A stretch of DNA of 32,000 nt from Geobacter sulfurreducens PCA (GCF_000007985.2 NC_002939.5:750001-782000), one strand, 5' to 3'; positions 5,054 through 19,483 are shown, counted from the stretch's first letter. The notes: generated from the sequence alone by a model not told the origin. Made by a program: numbers and translations.

Positions 5054-5374
5054 TCAGGCTGGCGAAGAGAGCTTGAGCCCGATGATGCCGGCGACGATCA
5101 GCGCAACACTGATCAGCCGGGCCGGGTTGGCCGGTTCCCCGAACAGCACGATCCCCAGGAGCACGGTGCCAACGGCACCCACCCCCACCCAGACGCTGTA
5201 CGCCGTGCCCACCGGCAGCGTCCTCATGGCGATCTCCAGCAGCCAGAAACTGGCGATCATTGCCAGTACCGTCAGGACCGTCGGCCAGAGCCGGGTGAAC
5301 CCTTCCGTGAATTTCAAGCCGATGGCCCAGCCCACCTCGAACAGCCCTGCGAGAACAAGAATTCCCCACGTCAT
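5054..5374 (-). CDS. sugE: SMR-family guanidinium exporter, SugE/Gdx-like
   Basis: 106 aa with 4 TM helices. It aligns closely by eye to E. coli SugE ([31 protein letters not shown]...[17 protein letters not shown]...IIGLKLSS), including the conserved membrane Glu. A mini-ykkC riboswitch lies directly upstream. Confidence 0.9.
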
Positions 5375-5449: not shown

Positions 5450-5782
5450 TCAGTGCGTCGCCGATGTGGAGCAGAGATTGAGAACCAGTACGCCGGCAAT
5501 GATCAGCAGAATACCGAAGACCGCCGGCAGATCGAGCCGCTGCCCCATGAAAACCCAGGCAACCACCGCGACCAGCGCCGTTCCCAGGCCGGACCAGATC
5601 GCATAGGCAATGCCGACCGGGATCGCTTTCAGGGTCAATGACAGGAAGTAGAAGGCGGAGGCATATCCGGCGACAACCACGCATGATGGCCAGAGCCGGG
5701 TGAACCCTTCGGCCGACTTGAGCGCGGTTGTCCCGGCAACCTCACTGATGATCGCCACCAGAAGATACAGCCATTTGTGCAT
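5450..5782 (-). CDS. emrE: SMR-family multidrug/quaternary-cation efflux protein, EmrE-like
   Basis: 110 aa. It is very similar by eye to E. coli EmrE ([24 protein letters not shown]...GIAYAIWSGLG...GQRLDLPAVFGILLIIAGVLVLNL). Confidence 0.85.
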   Translation of the reverse strand: MHKWLYLLVAIISEVAGTTALKSAEGFTRLWPSCVVVAGYASAFYFLSLTLKAIPVGIAYAIWSGLGTALVAVVAWVFMGQRLDLPAVFGILLIIAGVLVLNLCSTSATH

Positions 5783-6025: not shown

Positions 6026-9000
6026 TCAGTGGGGTCGTGCGGTGAAGGAATAACGCCGGGCCACGGAGGAGGTGTCGTGGAGAGTGGCCAGGAGCGTTGG
6101 CTCGTTGCCGAGCCCCTGGGGCGCGACGCTGTTGTGCAAGGCCTTGAGCGCACCCAGGAGTGGTGCGGCTTCGGTGCTAGCGGTGACGCGGGCGTCTTCG
6201 CCCAGGGCGGCAATCAGGTCGACCAGCCCCTTGCGCTCCTTGGGTTCGGCGAGGTTGCCGGCAGCGAGGATGGCCAAGTGGTCGAAGTAGACGGGGGCGA
6301 TGTCCGGCGCCCCGGTGACAATGGCCAACTGGGTCAGGAGAGCCCGGTAGGCTGTCTGTTCCCCCTTGTCGCCCACCAGGGTCTCGTGCTCGTGGAGCGG
6401 CAGGCTGGTGCGGATCAACCGGTAGACGTTGACGAAGCGCAGTCCCCGACGCGGGGTGCCCCCGGCATGGGGGGCAAGTTCGGCCATGAAGGCGGTTTCA
6501 TGGGGGGTGAGGGTCATGGTGCGGGCCTCGTGCTCGCGGAAGGACTCCCCGCCGCTGTCGGGCTGAGACGGCGCAGCGGGGGGCGGGGACGCGACCGGTG
6601 CCTCTGAGGGCGCTACTTCAGTCGCTCCGCCCGCCCGCTCTGTCGGCGGTTGGAGCGAAGGCGCCGGCGGGGCGGCGTTCGGAGCCGGTTCGGGCGACAG
6701 GGGTGCTTGGTCGGCCTGGACTGTCGACTCGGCTGCCACGATCCCCTTGATATAGTTCCGGCAGGCGTCGGCATCCATGGCGCGCACCCAGTAGGGAAGC
6801 TGGAAGATCTTCTCCAGGTAATCCTGGGACGAGGCGGCCCGCTCCCGGTCTGAGTTGTTGGGAGCGGTGCGCCGGTCGGTGGCATCATGCCGTGCTTCGC
6901 CGGCGGGGGCGCCGGGGCGGGCGGGTGCCGTGGCGCCGGTTCCGGGGATGATGACGGTTTCGGCCAGGAGCTCCGGGTAGACCTCCTTGAGGGAGCGGGA
7001 GACCCAGCGGGCGTCCACGGCCACGACGACCACGAAGAGGGGGAAGCAGAGGAGCAGGTGGATGGCCTGGAGGACCTCCACGACCTTTTCGGGCGGGCAG
7101 CGGTCCAAGTCGTCGATGTAGAGGATGATCCGCTCGAACAGGCGCAGGGATTCGGCGTCGAAGGTGGTGGAGGCCCGGAGGGCGGCGACCTCCTCGTCGG
7201 TCAGCACGTCGCCGGAGCGGGCGATGAGTTCTTCCACCCTGCGGACGTAGTCGAGCCGGGCCCGCTCATATTCCTCGGCCAGCTCCCGGTCGCGATCGGC
7301 GTCGGCCATGAGCTGGGCCAGCTGGCCGAAATCCTTGCGGATGGTGGCGATGATACCCAGGTGCTTGGCGTAGTCCCCGCTGACGACCTTGTCGCGGATG
7401 AAGGCATTGAGCCGCCCCCGGGCCGTGGCCCCCTGGAAGTCACGGGCCGCGTCGGCGGCGCGGCGGTCGGCATCGGCCAGGCGGCGCTCGGCCTGCTCCA
7501 CGTCGCTCCTGAGCCGCGTCGCCTCGCGCTCGGCATCGGTGAGCAGGGCCGCTTCATTGCTGTTCTTTCTGAATTCCTCGGTCCGCTCGGCAATGGCCGT
7601 TTCCAGGTTGGCGCGGAAGCCTTCGAGGGTGTCCAGGGCGGTGGCGGTCCGCTTGAGGGCCGTACCCGCGAACCCGGCCACGGAGGCCATGACCGAGGAG
7701 AGTCCCAGAACGGCGGCGTTCACCTCCTTCAGCCAGGAGAGCACCTCTGTCCGACCCAGGATGTCCCGGAACCAGACCACGGCGACCGGCGCCGCCACGA
7801 GGATCAGGGCCAGGGCCGCCAGCCACCGGGGGCGGCCGAGCGTGGCCATGGCGCTCCGCCCGAGGGTCCGGGCCCGTCCGGCCTGGGTGGTGGTTTCCTG
7901 GAGCACTTCGCTCAACTGGCGGGCCGAGGCGGAGAGTTCCGGAACTCCCAGGACCCGGCCGGCGCGGTCGATGGTCTCGCGCGTCTCCCGGTCCTTGCCC
8001 AGGGTCGTGCCCACGGCGGTCCAGAATTCGCCTGCCGTTGCCACGGCCTGGCGGGCCAGAGCCGTCTCGAACCGGGCCCGGACGGTTTTCAGGTTTTCTT
8101 CGGCCTCCTGGCGCTGGCGGCGGCGGAGCACCAGTTCGTCCATGGCCTCCAGCCTGAGGGTGCGGGAGGTGGAGAGGTGGTCGAAGAGAAGATCCACGGT
8201 CTCGTTGGGGTTTTCGGGGCGCTCCTTGAGCCAGCGGTCCAGTTCGGTGAAGATGTAATCCACCAGGCTGGCCCACAGGTTGGATTCCACGTAGTGCCAG
8301 GCATTGAAGCGGATCTGGACGATGTTGCCGTGGAAGGGGCCGTCACTGTCCGCATCCCGGGAAATCCGGGCCACATGCTCGTGCATCAGCTTCATGAAGA
8401 AGGTCTTGCCCGACCCCCATTCGCCGAATACCCCGATGGAGAGGGGCGGGCGGATGGCGCGGCCCGCGGCGAGGCGGGCAAAGGCCCGGGCCTCCTGCCG
8501 GACGTCCATGAGGTCCGTGGCCGAGGTGGGATCGTCGGCGGTGAACCGGGCAATGAGGACGTCGGGGCCGGCACTGACGGGCGGGACGGGGGCCTCGGCG
8601 GCAAAACTCTTGAAGATGGTGTCGGCGGGAGGAGGTTCCGGGGGCGGCGCCTCGGCCTGCTCCAGGGCCAGGGAGACCCAGGTGGAATCCTCCGACGGGA
8701 AGGCCCGCTGGAGGAAGTCGAGGGTGCTGCGCTGCCAGGCGGCGATGTCGACCCCCCAGCCGATGAGCTGGCGCCGGTGGTAGTCGGAGAGGCGGAAGGC
8801 GAGGGCCGCCAGCAGGTGGCGCGTCCCCAGGGGGCGGGGCTCGGCACCGTCGCGGGTGGCGAGCCGCAGCGCCGACCCGAGGATGTCGCGCACCGACGAG
8901 GAGTAGAACTCCCTGGCATCGGGGAGGGTGCCGGCGGCTGCCTGCTCCTCAACCCTTGGGCGCATCGCCTCGGATGTCTGCACCAGGTCGGCGATAGCCT

Positions 9001-9220
9001 CGGCCCGTTCTCCCGTTTCCCGGGCGTAGCGGGTAAACCAGGCGCCGGTCTCGTCCTCCACGAGAATTGCCCCCACGAGGATGGAGGTGAAGTTCACCGG
9101 CGTGCCGTCCCCCCGGATGGCGCCGGCCCATGCGGCAAGGCGCATGAGCCGGTCGAGGGACGGTTCGTAGGCCGCTTCGGGGGGAAACGGCGCCAGGGGG
9201 GCGGTTTCGGGCTTGTCCAT
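6026..9220 (-). CDS. KAP-family P-loop NTPase with transmembrane insert (1064 aa)
   Basis: Walker A is GVFGEWGSGKTFF (about nt 8405-8428). Walker B is ILYIDDLDRCPPEKVVEVL (about nt 7103-7126). About 430 aa are inserted between them, containing coiled-coil-like Arg/Glu/Ala segments and two hydrophobic helices (WLAALALILVAAPVAVVWF and AAVLGLSSVMASVAGFAGTAL, about nt 7655-7831). This is the hallmark KAP NTPase architecture. A Pro/Ala-rich linker and a C-terminal domain follow. Confidence 0.85.
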   Translation of the reverse strand: MDKPETAPLAPFPPEAAYEPSLDRLMRLAAWAGAIRGDGTPVNFTSILVGAILVEDETGAWFTRYARETGERAEAIADLVQTSEAMRPRVEEQAAAGTLPDAREFYSSSVRDILGSALRLATRDGAEPRPLGTRHLLAALAFRLSDYHRRQLIGWGVDIAAWQRSTLDFLQRAFPSEDSTWVSLALEQAEAPPPEPPPADTIFKSFAAEAPVPPVSAGPDVLIARFTADDPTSATDLMDVRQEARAFARLAAGRAIRPPLSIGVFGEWGSGKTFFMKLMHEHVARISRDADSDGPFHGNIVQIRFNAWHYVESNLWASLVDYIFTELDRWLKERPENPNETVDLLFDHLSTSRTLRLEAMDELVLRRRQRQEAEENLKTVRARFETALARQAVATAGEFWTAVGTTLGKDRETRETIDRAGRVLGVPELSASARQLSEVLQETTTQAGRARTLGRSAMATLGRPRWLAALALILVAAPVAVVWFRDILGRTEVLSWLKEVNAAVLGLSSVMASVAGFAGTALKRTATALDTLEGFRANLETAIAERTEEFRKNSNEAALLTDAEREATRLRSDVEQAERRLADADRRAADAARDFQGATARGRLNAFIRDKVVSGDYAKHLGIIATIRKDFGQLAQLMADADRDRELAEEYERARLDYVRRVEELIARSGDVLTDEEVAALRASTTFDAESLRLFERIILYIDDLDRCPPEKVVEVLQAIHLLLCFPLFVVVVAVDARWVSRSLKEVYPELLAETVIIPGTGATAPARPGAPAGEARHDATDRRTAPNNSDRERAASSQDYLEKIFQLPYWVRAMDADACRNYIKGIVAAESTVQADQAPLSPEPAPNAAPPAPSLQPPTERAGGATEVAPSEAPVASPPPAAPSQPDSGGESFREHEARTMTLTPHETAFMAELAPHAGGTPRRGLRFVNVYRLIRTSLPLHEHETLVGDKGEQTAYRALLTQLAIVTGAPDIAPVYFDHLAILAAGNLAEPKERKGLVDLIAALGEDARVTASTEAAPLLGALKALHNSVAPQGLGNEPTLLATLHDTSSVARRYSFTARPH

Positions 9221-9247
9221 GGGGTTCTCCCGGGTTGTCAGTTACGG

Positions 9248-9634
9248 TTACCGGTTCCTGCCGCCGCCGGGCCCCATCCCCTTGCCGGGGGCACCCATTC
9301 CGGCCGGACCCATGCCGCCGCCCGGCACCGGCGGTTCGTCGGGAAGGGTCACTCCCCGCTCCCTGGCCCTCTCTTTCATCCGCTCGTGGTGCTCTTTCCT
9401 GATCTGCTCCCGTTCCTGCACGGTCTTGGCGGCCCGCATCCTGGCCCGGTATTCGGCCCGTTCCTTCCTGGTCATGAGCTGGCTGCCGTAGACCCGTTCC
9501 TGCTCCTTGGCCTCGGTCCGGACTTTTTCCCGGACGTTCTCCCTGACGCGCTCCTGGTCCGTTGCCGGCGCGACTCCGGCGACCAGGGAGAGTATCCCCG
9601 CCGCGACGGTTGCGATGAGTGCCTGCTTCTTCAT
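9248..9634 (-). CDS. Secreted helical protein with Gly/Met/Pro-rich tail (ZraP/Spy/CpxP-like, tentative)
   Basis: The signal peptide is MKKQALIATVAAGILSLVAGVAPA. The core is charged and helical (Arg/Glu/Lys-rich) with an LMTRKE (LTxxQ-like) motif. The C-terminal GGGMGPAGMGAPGKGMGPGGG resembles the Gly/Met tail of ZraP. It starts 16 nt after the EEP gene and ends 27 nt before the KAP gene. Confidence 0.45.
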   Translation of the reverse strand: MKKQALIATVAAGILSLVAGVAPATDQERVRENVREKVRTEAKEQERVYGSQLMTRKERAEYRARMRAAKTVQEREQIRKEHHERMKERARERGVTLPDEPPVPGGGMGPAGMGAPGKGMGPGGGRNR

Positions 9635-9650
9635 GGCTGCCTCCTTTCGT

Positions 9651-10658
9651 TCATGGGTTCGGCCCGGTGGTCACCAGGAGCGAGACCGGCCGGTGATCGC
9701 TGGTCTGGCTGTCCTTGGGGAGCCCGGCGTTGGCCAGTTCGTGCACCTCGTGTTCCACCTTGCCTGCATGGGGCTTCACCTGCCACGGCAGAGAGCCGTT
9801 CACGAGCCCCTGGGTGAAGAGAATGTGATCCAGAAGAATCTCGGGGCGCCGGTCCGGCTGGACGAAGTCCCTGAACCGGACAGTCCAGCAGAGTTCGTCG
9901 GGGATGTCGAAGAGACCATGGTTAAGGAACCGGCTCGTGGCAAAGACGTTGCCCTGGATATTGGCGATGAGATCGAAGAAGAGGTATTGCTCCTCGAAGT
10001 ACTCCTTGCCCGGCCCGTCGTTGAAGTCGCCCAGCACGAACAGGGCGGGGTTGCCCACTTGCCGGAATTTGGCGTCGATGTACGCGCGGACGTTGGCGGC
10101 CTCGGTGGCCATCTTGATCCGGGCCGTGAGGGCCTCGCGGATGAATCGCTCCCGTTCGTCGCGCCAGAGCCGCTCTCCCTGGTTGATGAACTTGCTCTTC
10201 AGGTGCAGGCCGATAAACTCCACGCGCAGACCGTTCCAGTCCAGAATCAACACTTGGGGATGCCGATAGTGGCGGTGTGTCCCCTCCGTGAATTCGCCCC
10301 ACAGATGGCATGTCCATGATACCCCGGCAAAGGCATCCCATGTGCCGACGGGAAGAAGCGATGCCCGGGCCGCCAGATCCTGTCGGACGAGGAACCATAT
10401 CCACTGGTCACCCCTCGTGGCATAGTTGCCGTCGGCCGCCTTCACCGCCACCCACTCGCCGTCCAGCAAGTCGTTGGCAACAAGATCGATCCCCGCTTCG
10501 CCGGCTGGACCCTCAAGCAGACAGAGAATGTCGGGCGCCAACTCCCTGATCTCCCGCACCACGGCATCCCGTCGACGGCGTTCTTTGGCGGTGGGATGCG
10601 CTCTGGTCAAGCGTTCCAGATGCGCCACGTTCCAGGAGGTAATTTTGACTGTGCCCAT
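9651..10658 (-). CDS. Endonuclease/exonuclease/phosphatase (EEP) family protein
   Basis: 335 aa. EEP motifs occur in the right order: N-terminal KITSWNV, LCLLEGP (catalytic Glu), LGDFNDG and a C-terminal SDHRPVSL. There is no signal peptide. SD GGAAGGA lies upstream. Confidence 0.8.
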   Translation of the reverse strand: MGTVKITSWNVAHLERLTRAHPTAKERRRRDAVVREIRELAPDILCLLEGPAGEAGIDLVANDLLDGEWVAVKAADGNYATRGDQWIWFLVRQDLAARASLLPVGTWDAFAGVSWTCHLWGEFTEGTHRHYRHPQVLILDWNGLRVEFIGLHLKSKFINQGERLWRDERERFIREALTARIKMATEAANVRAYIDAKFRQVGNPALFVLGDFNDGPGKEYFEEQYLFFDLIANIQGNVFATSRFLNHGLFDIPDELCWTVRFRDFVQPDRRPEILLDHILFTQGLVNGSLPWQVKPHAGKVEHEVHELANAGLPKDSQTSDHRPVSLLVTTGPNP

Positions 10659-10731
10659 GGGATCCTTCCGTGCCGCGCGGCCACCCTGTCGGCGGAATGC
10701 CGGGAAGTGGTCCCCCTTGCGGCTGCCTGCG

Positions 10732-11235
10732 TCACTTGGCCTTCAGTTTCTCTCGATGTTCGTACAGCTTGCGATACTGTTCTGCCGACGGTTTCTGGAC
10801 GACCGGCCTAAAGACCGTGATGGACCTGACCCGCTCGTCGGCCGGGTCGATGACGAATTCGACCCCCTGGTCCGCATAGGTGAGAACGATGACGCTCCCT
10901 TTCATGGTCTTTTCTCCCCTGCCGTAGAATCGCAGTACCTCGGCCAGGGTGGCGCCGGCCTTCAAGCGGTTACGCTCTACTTCATATCGGGGCGATGAGA
11001 CGGTGATCCTGCCGATGATGCCGCCCGCCGTGGTGATGCCGATTCCCTTGCTTTTTCGGATAGTGCGAAGCGTGCGGTTGTCCGGTGCCGGATCGCCGAT
11101 GCTGAAACGTTCGATTCTCTGGCCCGGGACAATGATTCCTCCGCCTGATTCGCCGCGCACCCCGTCGGACGGAAGGCACGGGTCCAGGCCGAGGAGGGCG
11201 ATCCCTACGACGATGGCAGACAATCCCTTGCGCAT
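10732..11235 (-). CDS. Putative exported/lipoprotein of unknown function
   Basis: 167 aa. The N-terminal hydrophobic signal is MRKGLSAIVVGIALLGLDPC. It starts 15 nt after the upstream membrane-protein gene. I recognise no family. Confidence 0.55.
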   Translation of the reverse strand: MRKGLSAIVVGIALLGLDPCLPSDGVRGESGGGIIVPGQRIERFSIGDPAPDNRTLRTIRKSKGIGITTAGGIIGRITVSSPRYEVERNRLKAGATLAEVLRFYGRGEKTMKGSVIVLTYADQGVEFVIDPADERVRSITVFRPVVQKPSAEQYRKLYEHREKLKAK

Positions 11236-11250
11236 GATTTCTCCTCAGGC

Positions 11251-12846
11251 CTATGGTGGGCCGTCCCCTCCTCTTTCCGCAGCCAGGGCCACATTCTCAT
11301 GTTTCGTCGTACCTGCTTGCTGACGAAGCAGACGTATGATGCCGGGGATTTTTTCCGGCCTGACCGGTTCCACGCTCATATAGCTATAGGCGCTGCGTTC
11401 CAGCATGATAATCCTGGTGCTGCCGGCATCCGCCTCTTCCGGGTGTTCGAAGGCCCCGATGATGATTTCCCGTCCCTTGGTCGGTCCGAGGATGTAGAGT
11501 TCCGCCCCCCGCTGCCGGGCCTCGTCGAGTTTTTTCCTCAAGGGGTGGACTCCCTTGTCCTCCCCCGTAAAGACGATGTCTTTCAAGCGCTGGACTTTGA
11601 ATTCGAACTTGAACCGGCCGTAGGCGGTGGGGAGCGTGATGAGCACAGTCAGAAAGAGGAGGAAGATGACGACAAAGTAGCCCCCCTCCCAGAGGGGGAG
11701 ACGGATCAGGCGTGTACTGTTCAGCAACAGATAGACGAGGATGCCGATGAGCACCCAGAAGGAGTACGAGATCATGAACTGGCCGAAGGCAATGGGTTTC
11801 AGGCTGCCGAGGGATGTGCATATCCGGCTGGTATCCTCATCACCGGGGACGAAGAAGGCAGAGATATTCTCCCGCAGTCGCGTCAGGCGTCTCATGGATT
11901 CGCCGGCAAGCTCGTAGTTCGCGGGAATGAGGACCAGCGAAGAGGTGTCCCCCTCGCTCGTGAGGTGACCACTCAGCAGGCTGCGGAAATCCTGGAGGGT
12001 GAGGTTGACCCGCTCCCTCAGCCGCTGCTGCAGGGCATGGCTCAGCCAGACGTTGCGCAACGCCACATAGGTCTCCGATTTTTCGAAGTCAGCGTCTGAG
12101 CGGAATGGCGACGGTTCGCGGATGGAGAACCGCTTCTGGAACACCTCCAGAGAAAGCGGCGTACCTTCCCGTCGTGAGATTTCGGCCAGGGCATAGTTCA
12201 TCCAGTGTAGGGTCGGCTCCACCCCGAAGGTCAGTTCCTCGTAAAAGCGCTGCTGGAACTCGTCGGCCCGTTCGAGGGCACCCTTGCGGGGCAGCAGGAT
12301 GAGAACCATCCCTCCCAGGTCCTTGGAAAGGTCGGCCAGCACGCGTTCCTGGCACACGATGTCGGAAGAAAGCTTCCTGACGAACCAGCCCGAGGTGAGG
12401 ATGAAGGCTGCCGAGAGAGCCAGCGTCAGGAAAATAATATAGTTGATCCGATACCGGAGGATCAGGGAGACGGAGCGGGTGATCCGCCCCTTGCCGGCGG
12501 GACGTTCATTAGCGGCTTTGCCCCCACCGACGGGAACCGTCAACAAAAGCAGGGCCATGAGGATGACAAAGAAGGGGATCAGCCGCCAATCCTGAAAAAA
12601 GGTGAAGATGTCCTGAAAGAACTGAAAACCCGCCTCGGTAACGTACTCGTCGGTGTAGTGGACGACGCCGTAGAGGTTGTAGGCCCGCAGGCGTGCCACG
12701 ATGATGGCATTGCCGATCCAGAAAAAGAGGATGGCGCCGCCGCCGATGCCCCCAACAACAAGGCCGACGCTCTTCAGTACTTCAAGAATGGCGGTCAGGT
12801 CGACCCGTGGGGAGGTTTGGTTTGGCTGTTGCGTCTTCCCGTGCAT
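11251..12846 (-). CDS. Five-TM membrane protein of unknown function
   Basis: About 531 aa from ATG 12846; ATG 12891 is an alternative and neither has a good SD. Three N-terminal TM helices are followed by a soluble region of about 200 aa. Two more TM helices (FGQFMISYSFWVLIGILVYLLL, YFVVIFLLFLTVLITLP) and a soluble tail of about 120 aa follow. I recognise no family. Confidence 0.6.
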   Translation of the reverse strand: MHGKTQQPNQTSPRVDLTAILEVLKSVGLVVGGIGGGAILFFWIGNAIIVARLRAYNLYGVVHYTDEYVTEAGFQFFQDIFTFFQDWRLIPFFVILMALLLLTVPVGGGKAANERPAGKGRITRSVSLILRYRINYIIFLTLALSAAFILTSGWFVRKLSSDIVCQERVLADLSKDLGGMVLILLPRKGALERADEFQQRFYEELTFGVEPTLHWMNYALAEISRREGTPLSLEVFQKRFSIREPSPFRSDADFEKSETYVALRNVWLSHALQQRLRERVNLTLQDFRSLLSGHLTSEGDTSSLVLIPANYELAGESMRRLTRLRENISAFFVPGDEDTSRICTSLGSLKPIAFGQFMISYSFWVLIGILVYLLLNSTRLIRLPLWEGGYFVVIFLLFLTVLITLPTAYGRFKFEFKVQRLKDIVFTGEDKGVHPLRKKLDEARQRGAELYILGPTKGREIIIGAFEHPEEADAGSTRIIMLERSAYSYMSVEPVRPEKIPGIIRLLRQQAGTTKHENVALAAERGGDGPP

Positions 12847-12873
12847 GGGCACGCTCGCAGTGCAACAGGGTGT

Positions 12874-12908
12874 CGGGCGCCCCCACCGCATTGCCGGAGG
12901 GGCGCCCG
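12874..12908 (-). terminator. Strong GC stem-loop between the 758-aa gene and the 5-TM gene (terminator or processing/stability element)
   Basis: On the minus strand, CGGGCGCCCC pairs with GGGGCGCCCG (a perfect 10-bp stem) around a loop of about 15 nt. There is no U-tract, so intrinsic termination is uncertain. Confidence 0.4.
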
Positions 12909-12913
12909 GCAGT

Positions 12914-15190
12914 CTATGCCGGTTTCAGGTCATTGCAGATCCGCACCGGCCACAAGGCCTCGCGCCAGTGGGGGCCGCCCGGCGTGTAGGTACGGTCCTG
13001 GACGCGGAGCTTGAAGACGTACACGCAGCATTCGCCTCGGGGCAGGAGCAGGTCGGCCGGGACCGGGTAGCCCACCGATGCGCTGCAAAGCGGATCAATG
13101 GCCCGCAGGTCGAACTGGGCCAGGGTGCCGAAGACCGCGGCAGGAAGCGGGTTGGCCGGGTCGCAGGGGGTGCAGGAGGTGCCCGGATCGCCCACGCGGT
13201 TCGTGCCGAAGAAGCAGGGAGTCCCCATGCTCCAGGAAACGGGGATCTGGACTTCGGTCCCCCCCTGCTTGCTCACCTTGACCCAGTAGAAGTCGAAGTT
13301 GTCGTTGGGGCGGGTGAGTGGGAGGGCCGGGTCGATGTACTCGTCCCAGGCGATGCCCGAAAGCGGCAGGTTCCAGGGTACAGCGCAGTCGGGCGGGGTT
13401 GCGAAGGCGCTGACGCGGATGTCGGCGCAGCGGGGCACCGCATCGATCCGGATCATGGCACAGATGGGCTTGTTGTCGATCCAGACCTTCTGGGTGTCGT
13501 AGTAGAGGGTGCCCCCCGTGTCCTCCACCACCAGGCGCAGGGTGACCAAGCCACTCAGACCGCAGGTGGAGACGTGGGTCTGCCAGCAGGAGGGTGAGAG
13601 CCGGGCCTCGGGAACGTTCATCAGGCAGTAGGGGGGGAAGGGGACCGGCACCACGCAGTCGGTGACCCAGGAGGCGGTCAGCACCGACGTGTCCTTGCGC
13701 ATGTTCATGTCCCGGTACTGCCAGACCGTGTTGTACTCAACCTTCCAGATGTTGATCCAGCCGCCGGTGGTGGGGTCGGTCTCGAAGCCGGGCTTGTAGT
13801 CGATGAGGTAACGCTTGATCTTCCGCCCTTCGCACCCCCCCACGAAGGCGCTTCCCCAGATGGAGAGGCATTCGCCGAAGGATATCTCGTGGATCCCCGA
13901 GGGTCGCGTGCAGAGGGCCGGCACGGTCTCCACGAACATGGCCGCCGGGTCGTAGGCGGTGGTATCCAGGGTGAAGGCTCCGTCAAAGCCCAGGATGCGG
14001 ACATCCTGCTTGAAGAGGGAGAAAGTGATGGTCCTGACGCAGGTGGTTCCCTGGACCCCGTATACGGTGAGGCGGATGGTGTAGGCCCCTTCGTCCCGGG
14101 CCGTGGTGTCGAAGTAGGCCAGGAGTCCGCCCGCCACGGGGGAGTTTCCCTGGGTGCCGCCGCCCGGCGGGATGGGTGGATAGTGGAAGTCCGAAGCGTG
14201 CCAGGCAATGCCGTCGCGGGACCATTCCAGCACGTAGCGGAGGAAGCCGCCCCCTGTGGCCGTCCCCTTCACGGCCACCACCAGGGCCTTCAGGTCCGTG
14301 TTGACCTCTTCGGCCACGCAGCCGATGGGGTCGGTCAGTTCGCAGACCAGGGGCTGGAAGCAGCGGCGCAGGCAGCGGAAGTAGGCCACCAGGCAGCGAA
14401 CCAGATCGATGAGCGAGCGGGAACGCCCCAGGCACCAGCCGAAGCGGAATGCGCAGATGCACCAGCAGCGGCAGAGCCAGAAGCGCGGGTCCTTGCTCAG
14501 TTTCTCGAATATCTCGGCCCCCATGAGGAGCCGGGCGTTGTCCACCGTGAGGAACTTCTCGAACAGGGCCTCGGCCGCGTCGCCCCCCGAGTGGCAGTCC
14601 ACCTGGCCCGACACGGCCCCGTCGGCCAGTTCCATGGAGTGATCCATGGCCTTGGCCTCCTGCACCAACCAGGGCCTGAAGACCTCGGCAAAGCCTGCCG
14701 TGAGCTTGCGGAAGTCGGCCCGCTCCTCCGGCGTGGGCTGGCGGCCGGTGGGATCGTTCTGGAAGAGGCGGCGGATGCAGAGCCAGTAGCGGTAGAGGTA
14801 ATAGACCGAAACCGGGAAGGTGCGGGAGCGGGAGAGGAGCCAGCCGAAGCGGAGGCAGCAGAGGATTTTGCGCAGGCACCACTGCCACTGGTCGATGGGG
14901 CCCAGGGCTTCCCGGGCCTGGGGGGTGAGGGTTCGCAGGGCCACGTCGGCGGTGGCCAGGGGGGCGAAAAGCCGGTCGGCGAGAAGCTGCTCGTCCTCGC
15001 AGCTGTGGGGTTGCTTTTCCGCCACGGCCACGAGCCGCTCGGCGGACTCGCTCAGTTTGAGTTCTTCTTCGAGAATGGGGCGCCAAGCGTCCAGGAGCTG
15101 TTGGAGGACGAACTGGAAGTCCTCCCGGTTAATGTCCTCGTTCAGAAGCGCCTTGACGGTCTCCGCCGACAGTTTCGTTTCCTTTTCCAT
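12914..15190 (-). CDS. Large Cys/Trp/Arg-rich protein of unknown function (758 aa) with an internal duplicated motif and probable beta-sandwich C-terminal modules
   Basis: SD AAAGGAGAG lies 7 nt upstream of ATG 15190. The long ORF is coherent and has no signal peptide. The N-terminal ~290 aa are helical and contain two copies of a W.C......RFGW.L.RSR...L..Y..C.RR.FQ motif. The C-terminal ~470 aa contain segments like AYTIRLTVYGVQG, LVTLRLVVEDTGG and VYVFKLRVQD, which resemble Ig/PKD-like domain strands. Confidence 0.75.
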   Translation of the reverse strand: MEKETKLSAETVKALLNEDINREDFQFVLQQLLDAWRPILEEELKLSESAERLVAVAEKQPHSCEDEQLLADRLFAPLATADVALRTLTPQAREALGPIDQWQWCLRKILCCLRFGWLLSRSRTFPVSVYYLYRYWLCIRRLFQNDPTGRQPTPEERADFRKLTAGFAEVFRPWLVQEAKAMDHSMELADGAVSGQVDCHSGGDAAEALFEKFLTVDNARLLMGAEIFEKLSKDPRFWLCRCWCICAFRFGWCLGRSRSLIDLVRCLVAYFRCLRRCFQPLVCELTDPIGCVAEEVNTDLKALVVAVKGTATGGGFLRYVLEWSRDGIAWHASDFHYPPIPPGGGTQGNSPVAGGLLAYFDTTARDEGAYTIRLTVYGVQGTTCVRTITFSLFKQDVRILGFDGAFTLDTTAYDPAAMFVETVPALCTRPSGIHEISFGECLSIWGSAFVGGCEGRKIKRYLIDYKPGFETDPTTGGWINIWKVEYNTVWQYRDMNMRKDTSVLTASWVTDCVVPVPFPPYCLMNVPEARLSPSCWQTHVSTCGLSGLVTLRLVVEDTGGTLYYDTQKVWIDNKPICAMIRIDAVPRCADIRVSAFATPPDCAVPWNLPLSGIAWDEYIDPALPLTRPNDNFDFYWVKVSKQGGTEVQIPVSWSMGTPCFFGTNRVGDPGTSCTPCDPANPLPAAVFGTLAQFDLRAIDPLCSASVGYPVPADLLLPRGECCVYVFKLRVQDRTYTPGGPHWREALWPVRICNDLKPA

Positions 15191-15243
15191 CCGTGGACTC
15201 TCCTTTCATCCGCATCCGTGCGGACATACGCGCATCCGGCGCG

Positions 15244-16053
15244 TCAGGCGTACCGCAGGTACCGCTCTGCCACCCATTGCTGCTCGGTTGGGTGGATACG
15301 GACCCAGCCGTCAGCCGTTTCGAATACGTTGACCCGGACCCCCCGCTTGAGCCCTTTAACCACCGGGAACTCAGTTCCCCTGCCTGCCCGGACGTTGAGG
15401 CTCGAGGCCACAACCTCGCCGCTCTTGAGCGGAACCGGCGCACTGGGTGCGGTCCCCCCCGTGAGCTGGGCCAGGGTCTGGGCCACCAGGGGGATGAACG
15501 TTGCCGCAGCCGCATCCATGGAGTTGCCGCCGAAGAATGCGGTGCCTGGGCAGGTCTTGGTGGTGCCGGATCCGCCCGTGCGCTTGCCGGAGTTCAGGTC
15601 GTACCAGTGGTGATACACTATGGAGTCGGTGTTGGGCGTCAGGTTGAACTCCCGGCAGAGCAGGGCGTTGATCTTTACGATGGCGTCCCGGTGAGCCGGG
15701 GTCATGGTGTCGCCGCCCGCATCGAAGTTGCCCAGGTTTTCCAGGCAGATACCCTCTTGGTTGGCCCCCTTGATGCCGCAGGGGACCTTGTCGATGGAGC
15801 GGCAGACCGCCACGGTTCCGTCGGGGAACGATGTCAGGTTCTGGGCGATCTCCGAGAACCCCCGCTCGGCCATGTGGAAATGCTCCATCCCCTCCAGCAG
15901 GCCGAAGTGGTTGCTCCCTGTGAACTGGACGTAGCCGGGCAGGTAGGTATGATGGTTCTGAACGAGCTTGACGGAGCGGCTGAACCTGGTCTCCAGCAGC
16001 CACTGGTCGAACTCGTCCATGGTGAAGAGGAGGAATTTGCCCTTTTTCTTCAT
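15244..16053 (-). CDS. N-acetylmuramoyl-L-alanine amidase (Amidase_2/PGRP, T7-lysozyme type) fused to SH3b domain; no signal peptide
   Basis: The zinc-amidase motif order is VQNHHTYLP ... GANQEGICLENLGNFD ... IVYHHWYD...KTCPGTAFF. The C-terminal segment GEVVASSLNVRAGRGTEFPVVKGLKRGVRVNVFETADGWVRI is SH3b-like. SD GGAGGAG is present, with a 15-nt gap from the caspase gene. Confidence 0.8.
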   Translation of the reverse strand: MKKKGKFLLFTMDEFDQWLLETRFSRSVKLVQNHHTYLPGYVQFTGSNHFGLLEGMEHFHMAERGFSEIAQNLTSFPDGTVAVCRSIDKVPCGIKGANQEGICLENLGNFDAGGDTMTPAHRDAIVKINALLCREFNLTPNTDSIVYHHWYDLNSGKRTGGSGTTKTCPGTAFFGGNSMDAAAATFIPLVAQTLAQLTGGTAPSAPVPLKSGEVVASSLNVRAGRGTEFPVVKGLKRGVRVNVFETADGWVRIHPTEQQWVAERYLRYA

Positions 16054-16068
16054 GGTGGTCTCTCCTCC

Positions 16069-16902
16069 TCAGACGGTGAACGGCCTTTGTTTCAGGAATG
16101 CCGGGTCGGGCGTCCCCGCGGTGAAGAAATTAGGGGTTTGGTCCGGCGGCATCCGCCTGACTATGGCCTTGTGGAAGGAGCGGTAGCTCCCTTTGTAGAG
16201 GCCGTTCTTCCATACCCGGAGCAACTGCCCCGTGAACGCGCCGTTGAAAGCACCATCCTGGGAGAGTTGGTTGTCCTGGCAGCCGGAGATGAGGAGGATG
16301 GAGGCCTTCACGTCGGCCAGGTCCACTTTTTTCGTTTTTTGCTGGATCGTGTCGTAGAACTCTCTGTTGGCCCGGTAGGTCCGCATGGCCACGCTCTGGG
16401 GCATGGCCCGGTACCGGATTTCCCCCTCGTCCGGACCGGCGGAGCGGGCCGCGGTGGTACCGTTGTAGTAGGCCATCTTCACCACGGTGCCGCTGTGGCA
16501 GCTGTCGGAGAAGACCAGCACCCGGACCCCGGCGGCGAATTTCCCGAGCAGGGCGTAGAGTTCGTCGTCGATCAGTTCGCCGTCGAAGAGGCACCAGGTC
16601 TCGTCGACGCCGTCCGGCTCGTCGTTGGACGTGTCCGGTACCTGCCCCCCGTGGCCGGAGTAGCTGAGCATAAAGATGTCGCCCTTGCCGAGGGCCTTGG
16701 CGGCCTTGCCGATGGCATCGATGACCTTGGCCCGGGTGGCCGCCTTGGTCATGAGCGTGGTGACGGCAAAGCCCCTCTCCGCTGCGATGGCCGCCATGTC
16801 CTCGGCGTCGGCTTCGCAGGCGTTGAGTTTGCCGGCCCAGCCTCCGTAATGTTTCGGGTCAACGGCGTTAAGACCGAGTGCGAGTGCTATTCCCTTTGGC
16901 AT
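16069..16902 (-). CDS. Caspase-family (peptidase C14) protease, catalytic domain only
   Basis: ATG 16902 is preceded by AAGGAGA; the 33-codon in-frame extension in the track ORF lacks an SD. The catalytic His lies in MLSYSGHGG and the catalytic Cys in VFSDSCHSG, with orthocaspase-typical spacing. 277 aa with no extra domains. Confidence 0.85.
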   Translation of the reverse strand: MPKGIALALGLNAVDPKHYGGWAGKLNACEADAEDMAAIAAERGFAVTTLMTKAATRAKVIDAIGKAAKALGKGDIFMLSYSGHGGQVPDTSNDEPDGVDETWCLFDGELIDDELYALLGKFAAGVRVLVFSDSCHSGTVVKMAYYNGTTAARSAGPDEGEIRYRAMPQSVAMRTYRANREFYDTIQQKTKKVDLADVKASILLISGCQDNQLSQDGAFNGAFTGQLLRVWKNGLYKGSYRSFHKAIVRRMPPDQTPNFFTAGTPDPAFLKQRPFTV

Positions 16903-17163
16903 GATTTCATTCTCCTTTTTGACCGGCTGATAGTGTGGGTGCGGAGCATTGGCAGGGGGGGCGCGGTGATGCCGGAAAGGGTGCCGGTGAGGGGAGAACA
17001 CGGGGGTGCCGGAGGCGGTGACATGGAGCCCTCCCTGGCTCGCGTGGCGCGTCCCTGCGCAGCGCTGTTCTTCGTGAGGTTGTCGCCGATTGGCGGTACC
17101 GCCTGCCGCGGCTTTTCGCCTGTGAACGTGGAACGGTTGATTGGTGTCGCTTAACTATGCGTA

Positions 17164-17191
17164 AGTATATCCCGTCGGCTGCCGGATGCAA
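17164..17191 (-). promoter_or_regulatory. Sigma70-type promoter candidate for the caspase operon
   Basis: The minus strand reads TTGCAT-N16-TATACT, with the -35 at 17186-17191 and the -10 at 17164-17169. This implies a 5' leader of about 255 nt before ATG 16902. Confidence 0.4.
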
Positions 17192-17315
17192 GGGGTGAGC
17201 AAAAAAAACGCTTTGTGTAACGGTATGGAATGATTCGATTTTACTCCTGGAGTCGCCGACGCGGTTCGTGCCGGCAGGAAGTGCATAACCGGCCGGGTGA
17301 GACGCTCCCCGTTTC

Positions 17316-17324
17316 TGGTATAAT
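17316..17324 (+). promoter_or_regulatory. Extended -10 promoter element (TGGTATAAT)
   Basis: A perfect TATAAT lies at 17319-17324 with an upstream TG. It sits about 45 nt before the small membrane-protein gene. The -35 is weak. Confidence 0.4.
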
Positions 17325-17368
17325 GAAGTACATCGCCGGGATGGTCCGCCCGCAAAAGGAGCTTGTTG

Positions 17369-17638
17369 ATGATGAAGCCGGTCTACCTCTTTTTTCTCCT
17401 GGTGTTCGTCGTTCCAGGGGTGACGGGGGGGATTCTCGCCGCGAACCGGGCACGGAACGTCTTTGTCTGGAGCCTGCTGAGCGCCGTCTTCCCCATCTTT
17501 CTGCTGGTCATTTATTTCCATAAGCCCCTGCGGGAGGTGGAGGGGAAATTCCGGCGCTGTGGCGGCTGCGGCGAGTTCATCCCCTGGCGCGAGACGGCCT
17601 GCAGATACTGCGGCCGGGAGCAGCCTACACACCCCTGA
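17369..17638 (+). CDS. Small membrane protein with C-terminal zinc-ribbon (CxxC...CxxC)
   Basis: AAGGAG lies 7 nt upstream of ATG 17369. The protein has two hydrophobic helices followed by RRCGGCGEFIPWRETACRYCGRE. Confidence 0.6.
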   Translation: MMKPVYLFFLLVFVVPGVTGGILAANRARNVFVWSLLSAVFPIFLLVIYFHKPLREVEGKFRRCGGCGEFIPWRETACRYCGREQPTHP

Positions 17639-17713
17639 GCCATCCAGTGCACTGAAGCGCGCGGCTGTTTCCACTGACGGCCTCCAGCCAACGCGCGCTG
17701 AGGAGAATTCTTC

Positions 17714-19483
<1,770 letters not shown>

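Follow-up and report, generated by a model that had tools for sequence, protein, structure and literature searches.

Composition and variability of a defence-island-like gene block in Geobacter sulfurreducens PCA, with a candidate single-gene KAP defence protein

Eight genes on one strand of the Geobacter sulfurreducens PCA chromosome, GSU0709 to GSU0716, encode among others a caspase-like protease, a cell wall amidase, a putative nuclease and a membrane NTPase of the KAP family. They lie in a stretch of 32,000 nucleotides (NC_002939.5:750001-782000, hereafter the window), of which they occupy, together with a candidate promoter, positions 6026-17191. A preliminary description made from the sequence regarded this block as part of a defence island, consisting of either one composite system or two adjacent systems. 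Does the block act as a unit, and does it serve defence? Comparison with relatives, domain and structure searches and scans for known defence systems suggest that the block is a variable, defence-island-like accessory hot spot with one plausible single-gene defence protein, the KAP NTPase. We consider it reasonably probable that the locus is a gene-flux hot spot of at least three to four independent small modules, which may be co-transcribed, and not one functional system.

Anatomy of the block and its variation among close relatives

The features are listed below in the direction of transcription and the genes are designated G1 to G8.

17164-17191, minus strand: candidate promoter (TTGCAT ... 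TATACT), read from the sequence
16069-16902, minus strand: G1 (GSU0716), 277 aa, stand-alone type-I-like metacaspase
15244-16053, minus strand: G2 (GSU0715), leaderless endolysin-like N-acetylmuramoyl-L-alanine amidase with Amidase_2 and SH3_3 domains (Pfam)
12914-15190, minus strand: G3 (GSU0714), 758 aa, Cys-rich, no Pfam match
12874-12908, minus strand: GC-rich stem-loop directly 3' of the G3 stop codon
11251-12846, minus strand: G4 (GSU0713), 531-aa membrane protein with about five transmembrane (TM) helices (TM scan), no Pfam match
10732-11235, minus strand: G5 (GSU0712), 167 aa, N-terminal signal or anchor, no Pfam match
9651-10658, minus strand: G6 (GSU0711), leaderless phosphoesterase of the EEP superfamily
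9248-9634, minus strand: G7 (GSU0710), 128 aa, small exported protein, no Pfam match
6026-9220, minus strand: G8 (GSU0709), 1064-aa KAP-family membrane P-loop NTPase

The listing of open reading frames (ORFs) agrees with the preliminary description in the co-direction of all eight genes on the minus strand, from GSU0709 (KAP) to GSU0716, and in the intergenic gaps of 15, 53, 67, 15, 73, 16 and 27 nt. Six of the eight predicted proteins are identical to entries in GenBank AAR34039-AAR34046. The domain calls also stood in Pfam (Peptidase_C14, Amidase_2+SH3_3, Exo_endo_phos, KAP_NTPase). Four proteins (G3, G4, G5, G7), and not three as counted before, are without a Pfam family, and the label "orphan" has to be given up, as about 45 relatives of G4 exist and members of the G3 family were found in 141 species or more. 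A hairpin at about 12874-12908 was confirmed, with a 14-bp GC stem of -43.5 kcal/mol (z = -2.4) and, according to fold analysis, no U-tract. It sits where the G1-G3 module gives way to the G4-G6 module.

Close relatives differ from PCA by discrete losses and gains. Contigs of the G. soli/anodireducens type (represented by L001) encode desulfoferrodoxin, a hydrolase, a response regulator, an 89-aa protein, a C25 peptidase and the caspase, followed by the amidase, G3, G7, KAP, two SMR proteins, CcsA and ResB. Their DNA aligns to 16920-12750 at 93% and to 9682-5051 at 90% identity; the first of these segments includes the stem-loop, which is thus retained in relatives with G4-G6 deleted. Missing is 12750-9682, a segment with the greater part of G4, the whole of G5, and G6 as far as 31 nt short of its stop codon. 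Since the 5' end of G4 (47 aa) and the 3' end of the EEP gene persist as remnants, a 3.07-kb deletion must have occurred there; it leaves G1-G3 and G7-G8 intact. The same contigs carry a 2.6-kb C25 peptidase gene upstream of the caspase gene where PCA has 90 nt. They lack 19072-17672, which encodes the sensor and kinase part of a hybrid histidine kinase, as well as 5051-3717 with a whole MFS transporter gene. A strain-level relative (L093) has genes for a B12-radical-SAM protein, a 268-aa protein and a C25 peptidase upstream of the caspase gene, and two extra genes (464 and 355 aa; 2.65 kb) between G5 and the EEP gene. The C25/radical-SAM insertions upstream of the caspase gene measure 2.6-5 kb among close relatives. 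Overall, clean indels of 1.3-5 kb are found in or beside the block between flanks of 90-93% identity, which agrees with the pattern of a defence island. For the G. sulfurreducens clade this documents a hot spot at which genes are gained and lost between conserved flanks. We picture this hot spot as bounded by the desulfoferrodoxin/hydrolase/histidine-kinase flank on one side and by the SMR/cytochrome-c-biogenesis flank on the other.

The idea that the block is core and syntenic throughout applies to part of it: the caspase-amidase-G3 trio keeps its site across Geobacter lineages, while the rest of the block is variable. The trio is found at the same site by desulfoferrodoxin with barnase/barstar upstream (L007), and, in a further locus (L010), with genes for a radical-SAM and a 263-aa protein upstream and for DUF6345, SNase, patatin and other proteins downstream. 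Its presence at one chromosomal site in several Geobacter lineages means that it is not a recent insertion. Even the trio is separable. G. hydrogenophilus has the order rSAM-26x-G3, without caspase or amidase, and one locus (L076) has barnase-barstar-caspase-G3 without amidase.

The metacaspase, the amidase and the G3 family

G1 matches Peptidase_C14 (PF00656) with 95 bits and is identical to PDB 3BIJ. GSU0716 has been described as a bacterial type-I metacaspase without prodomain (PMC3734836). The protein consists of p20 and p10 and has neither a prodomain nor a signal peptide; the His84/Cys135 dyad and the motifs SGHGG and DSCHSG are invariant among its relatives. An AAGGAG ribosome-binding site precedes the ATG at 16902. 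With bacterial type-I metacaspases/orthocaspases (MEROPS C14; 3BIJ) G1 shares the p20/p10 architecture and the His/Cys dyad, but it is without a fused sensor or effector domain, unlike most caspases of conflict systems. The EACC1-associated caspase model (NF047832) gave 34.7 bits against a cutoff of 140, and no EACC1 partner is annotated among the block neighbours (Pfam, NCBIfam). A gasdermin-like substrate was likewise not found, since no block gene matches a gasdermin model (Pfam, PADLOC) and the structural models of G3 and G4 are unlike gasdermin. Literature searches for GSU0709-GSU0716 gave only structural or phylogenetic mentions of GSU0716.

Relatives of G1 at 60-74% identity are encoded by 80 metagenome loci, none of which (0/80) has the amidase, G3, G4-G7 or KAP nearby. 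The commonest neighbour of the metacaspase in these loci is a Peptidase_C1: a leaderless, papain-like protein of 305 aa is encoded directly downstream in 21 of the 47 metacaspase loci whose DNA continues for 1 kb or more on that side. Loci with this order include L098, L110, L112, L115, L118, L121, L124 and L140, among others. A scan of viral contigs returned only two caspase relatives. On an IMG/VR viral contig (L175 6001-6819), a 65%-identical metacaspase is encoded directly downstream of a 720-aa ORF, which itself has a weak match to a Mu-F-like head-morphogenesis domain.

PADLOC, NCBIfam and PHROGs were scanned with all eight block proteins, and G2 was the only one to match PHROGs, in amidase/endolysin lysis families. 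It has no hydrophobic N-terminus. G2 resembles phage endolysins (Amidase_2 + SH3) in its two-domain layout, its PHROGs lysis matches and the lack of a signal peptide. Unlike phage endolysins, it is chromosomal and kept beside the metacaspase in Geobacter, and no holin, spanin or other phage gene is found nearby. An amidase gene beside the caspase gene was seen solely in Geobacter loci.

G3 belongs to a family with more than 157 homologues at 46-98% identity, the alignment of which has 64 invariant columns, many of them Cys. The search yielded 415 matches among 1.84 billion cluster representatives. The 141 GTDB species that carry G3 belong to Betaproteobacteria, Acidobacteriota, Chloroflexota, Nitrospirota, Verrucomicrobiota, Actinomycetota, Bacteroidota and others, and the family is 50-65% identical across many phyla. 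It was not found in the viral-contig scan. An AlphaFold2 (AF2) model with a pLDDT of 88.5 consists of a duplicated, helical, Cys-rich N-domain (residues 1-277) followed by four to five Ig-like beta-sandwich domains. Foldseek returned generic Ig-tandem adhesin and S-layer matches only, and a profile search against PDB sequences gave only noise. A direct repeat inside G3 (D2; 14417-14457 and 14822-14862, spacing 405 nt) corresponds to an internal duplication of a Cys/Trp/Arg-rich helical hairpin (WCLRKILCCLRFGW / FWLCRCWCICAFRFGW).

Ninety G3 loci were examined, 10 from protein look-up and 80 from GTDB genomes. A small protein with the N-terminal motif CCGQKR (starting MxCCGQKR) is encoded downstream of G3 on the same strand in 64 of the 90 loci, and a DUF1360-like membrane protein with a DCFYCLSLW motif in 54 of the 90. 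Together with G3 they form a fixed three-gene cassette in most lineages (L004-L006, L012-L090), all members of which are Cys-rich. Neither partner is encoded in the window, where a tblastn search for both families gave best E values of 0.002-0.005, at off-target positions. Neither caspase nor amidase lies beside G3 outside Geobacter/Desulfuromonadales among the loci examined. G3 is thus strikingly conserved, has a confident structural model and belongs to a fixed cassette in most lineages. In Geobacter its surroundings differ: M4 peptidase and emfourin genes adjoin G3 in L048 and L009, and enzyme-inhibitor pairs (barnase/barstar, M4/emfourin), SNase and patatin gather around it (L007 5123-5877; L051 18500-20871; L048 7-1487; L009 3667-5191; L010 14144-16160).

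G1-G3 may be viewed as a first module (module A), in which a metacaspase and an endolysin-like amidase, both leaderless, are joined by the Cys-rich protein G3 with its Ig repeats, a combination specific to Geobacter. We propose that the metacaspase, presumably of the Arg/Lys type, would work with or activate the neighbouring cytoplasmic hydrolase, because the family pairs with a leaderless C1 peptidase elsewhere and with C25 in relatives. This could serve a self-lysis or cell-death response, a role that is speculative. A bolder and distinctly improbable version is that the GSU0716-type metacaspase and an adjacent leaderless hydrolase constitute an undescribed two-enzyme cell-death/lysis cassette, linked in Geobacter to G3 as a possible sensor or scaffold. 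Here the metacaspase would be the dedicated partner, possibly the proteolytic activator, of the hydrolase next to it; most lineages would have a papain-like C1 peptidase in this role, Geobacter an endolysin-like amidase plus a C25 peptidase.

The G4-G5 pair, the EEP protein and the KAP NTPase

The ORF of G4 extends to 12891; a start at the ATG at 12846 is supported by relatives of 531-533 aa. The AF2 model has a pLDDT of 70 and no Foldseek match below E = 0.07. G5 has a hydrophobic N-terminus. In two loci (L091, L092) that lack EEP and KAP, a DUF900 hydrolase gene is followed by a G4 homologue and, directly downstream of it, by a gene for a protein 36-41% identical to G5. G4-G5 is thus a conserved pair.

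G6 matches Exo_endo_phos (PF03372) with 41 bits over the full profile, which places it in the EEP fold; no PDB structure is related to it by sequence. Phosphatases and sphingomyelinases (lipid phosphodiesterases) are members of the EEP superfamily too. The earlier name "nuclease" therefore holds as far as the fold is concerned, but the nucleic-acid substrate was an assumption in a superfamily that is broader. The gene is absent from the L001-type relatives, and in L093 two additional genes lie between it and G5. One G. sulfurreducens strain has the EEP orthologue as two fragments, WP_254278373 (167 aa) and WP_254278372 (153 aa), which suggests pseudogenisation. A second module (module B) would thus be made up of G4 and G5, with the EEP protein in PCA: a membrane protein and a small exported protein that appear beside a hydrolase gene at every locus examined.

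G7 has a signal-like N-terminus, a charged helix and a Gly/Met/Pro-rich tail. It is kept with KAP in L001 and L093, and no G7 was seen next to a KAP relative of 46% identity. A small ORF upstream of that KAP relative was considered as a counterpart of G7 and rejected, as the sequences are not similar. G7 is probably an unrelated envelope or periplasmic protein.

Membership of G8 in the KAP family is clear (KAP_NTPase, PF07693; 78.6 bits, cutoff 20). Walker A (GEWGSGKT) lies at about residue 265 and Walker B (YIDDLD) at about residue 700, and two TM helices (466-484 and 500-518) are placed between them, as is typical of KAP proteins. This core is preceded by a domain of about 220 aa and followed by a C-terminal region. 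More than 700 relatives were found; they conserve the core from about residue 220 to the end, with N-termini swapped for TIR, Clp_N, peptidoglycan-binding or HEAT domains. The N-terminus of G8 itself has no Pfam match, and its assignment as Clp_N is not claimed (hhalign probability 26%).

Relatives of G8 occur in various contexts. In one locus (L174) a 46%-identical relative stands alone among unrelated genes. On a Rhizobium plasmid the KAP gene is followed by genes for SIR2 and a nucleoside 2-deoxyribosyltransferase, beside IS66; on an Agrobacterium plasmid it is followed by a DUF2971 gene, near VapBC, an integrase and Tn3. At L177 5765-11513 and L178 5672-10296 the plasmid-borne KAP gene overlaps the downstream genes for SIR2 plus nucleoside 2-deoxyribosyltransferase or for DUF2971, and these loci look like uncharacterised KAP-led defence operons.

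A 2026 study reported that single-gene KAP proteins protect Enterococcus faecalis from phages in a Walker-B-dependent manner (PMC13552941). G8 has in common with this EF_KAP (PMC13552941) and with PifA of the F plasmid a KAP P-loop with TM helices inserted between the Walker motifs, large flanking regions without known domains, and relatives in defence or mobile-element contexts. It differs from them in having an N-terminal domain of its own, about 220 aa long, and its similarity to the PifA and QatA models is limited to short stretches of 36-82 bits. Full-length similarity to PifA was not detected, as the PADLOC model PDLC02361 gave 35.9 bits with the best stretch at residues 695-746. The best NCBIfam and PADLOC match of G8 is QatA, a KAP ATPase of the Qat system (NF041923), at 81.9 bits against a cutoff of 600. 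QatB, QatC (QueC-like) and QatD (TatD) were not found among the eight genes by Pfam, PADLOC or NCBIfam.

G7 and G8 may represent a third module (module C). The KAP protein would most likely be a conflict or defence protein of the PifA/EF_KAP kind that is complete in itself, sits in the membrane and is driven by NTP; sensing or execution would fall to its N- and C-terminal regions. We infer this role from the contexts of the family and from the EF_KAP and PifA precedents. The conflict function ascribed to KAP in the preliminary description is thus backed by the defence and mobile-element contexts of the subfamily and by experimental precedent (PMC13552941), but no curated defence model is matched. 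On this analysis, G8 is the best defence-gene candidate of the block and probably works alone.

Defence, rival explanations and the meaning of the locus

No recognised defence system was found in the block: PADLOC gave no system-level match for the eight proteins, and NCBIfam gave none either. PADLOC returned weak partial matches only, to a caspase model and, with the KAP protein, to QatA, PifA and PDC-S20. Mobility hallmarks and compositional anomalies are lacking as well. In agreement with the preliminary description, searches of the window found no tRNA, no flanking repeats around the block and no integrase domain in the Pfam-scanned proteins. GC content at third codon positions (GC3) is 0.74-0.89 in block genes and 0.71-0.88 in the flanks; the 70% GC of the KAP gene is owed to codon positions 1 and 2. 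A prophage origin is rejected as there are no phage genes in the block, and an integrative element as there is no integrase, tRNA or repeat. The block is similar to defence islands and accessory hot spots in its conserved flanks, differing content and cargo of hydrolases, toxin-inhibitor pairs and an NTPase. It is dissimilar from defence islands in having no recognised system, mobility genes or repeats and a native-like codon composition, and from typical ones in the stable G1-G3 content across the genus.

The flanks are as described before, with a two-component side and an efflux side. A hybrid histidine kinase is encoded at 17714-19483 on the plus strand (Pfam), and an SMR gene pair and an MFS transporter gene lie on the opposite flank. 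Between the block and the histidine kinase gene, a plus-strand gene at 17372-17638 encodes an 88-aa protein that has a single hydrophobic helix and ends in a C-terminal part with the motif CxxC...CxxC; every Geobacter relative examined has this gene. The SMR tandem paralogues (5054-5374 and 5450-5782) have a common 56-nt repeat at a spacing of 405 nt (D1). For the promoter proposed at about 17170, a TATACT with a poor -35 element is readable, but a consensus scan made no call; it would be a weak consensus guess. Two long antisense ORFs are probably high-GC artefacts: one of 976 aa (6887-9817, plus strand) antisense to the KAP gene, and one of 816 aa (16907-19357, minus strand) antisense to the histidine kinase gene and without a Pfam match.

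Several points weigh against a collection of independent modules in a hot spot with a defence gene. The eight genes are tightly spaced and co-directional, with a single hairpin without U-tract between them, so that co-transcription and functional coupling are possible. Several Geobacter lineages have conserved the trio as a set, at 71-97% protein identity, and this points to selection for the combination. Literature searches gave no expression, phenotype or phage-challenge data for GSU0709-GSU0716, no block gene matches a curated defence model (PADLOC, NCBIfam), and the composition gives no sign of recent transfer. In addition, neighbourhood sampling is uneven, and many metagenome contigs are short.

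Among the alternatives, the first is a physiology unrelated to defence, such as envelope turnover, regulated autolysis, release of extracellular DNA in biofilms, stress or nutrient scavenging, with variability as a result of dispensability. We judge it unlikely. For modules A and B such a role is favoured by the native-like GC3 and by the fact that the trio has stayed at one site in the various Geobacter lineages. It would also accord with the absence of mobility genes, with the ordinary metabolic genes that surround the scattered members of the G3 and metacaspase families in other phyla, and with our reading of G7 as resembling a periplasmic stress-type protein. However, the KAP subfamily is marked by TIR fusions and by SIR2, toxin-antitoxin, IS and integrase neighbourhoods, the nearby Geobacter cargo includes pairs in the style of toxin and immunity (barnase/barstar, M4/emfourin) as well as SNase and patatin, and the hydrolases are without export signals, which fits intracellular action better than scavenging.

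Two adjacent systems parted by the hairpin, caspase-amidase-G3 and G4 through KAP, make for a quite unlikely arrangement. Part of this proposal stands: the hairpin at 12874-12908, directly after the G3 stop codon, is a module boundary, and G1-G3 travel together in Geobacter. The second half, however, splits into G4-G5(-EEP) and G7-KAP. G7-KAP is kept without G4-G6 in L001-type genomes, G4-G5 accompanies DUF900 at other loci that have neither EEP nor KAP, and KAP relatives occur without G4-G7; the first half is separable as well (L051, L076). Least tenable, and in our view very improbable, is a single eight-gene system, in which KAP would sense infection and drive the caspase, amidase and EEP effectors with the other proteins as adaptors: although all genes point the same way with little DNA between them, an NTPase is grouped with a protease, a lytic amidase and a phosphoesterase, and KAP relatives elsewhere precede effector genes, the components are not co-inherited outside the clade and each occurs without the others in other genomes, the natural 3.07-kb deletion of G4-G6 spares a remainder conserved at 90-93% DNA identity, other relatives gain or lose C25, rSAM and two more genes, and PADLOC recognises no system.

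If the locus is indeed a hot spot of small modules, the block should be neither cloned nor scored as one system. The separable units are GSU0709 alone, the caspase and amidase with or without G3, and G4-G5 with or without the EEP enzyme. The three proteins first taken for orphans are now defined families with conserved partners. A metacaspase with a crystal structure (3BIJ) gains a recurrent class of genomic partner, which hints at its substrate or co-effector. As a unit the block is ordinary; the G3 cassette and the pairing of metacaspase and hydrolase are the worthwhile leads.

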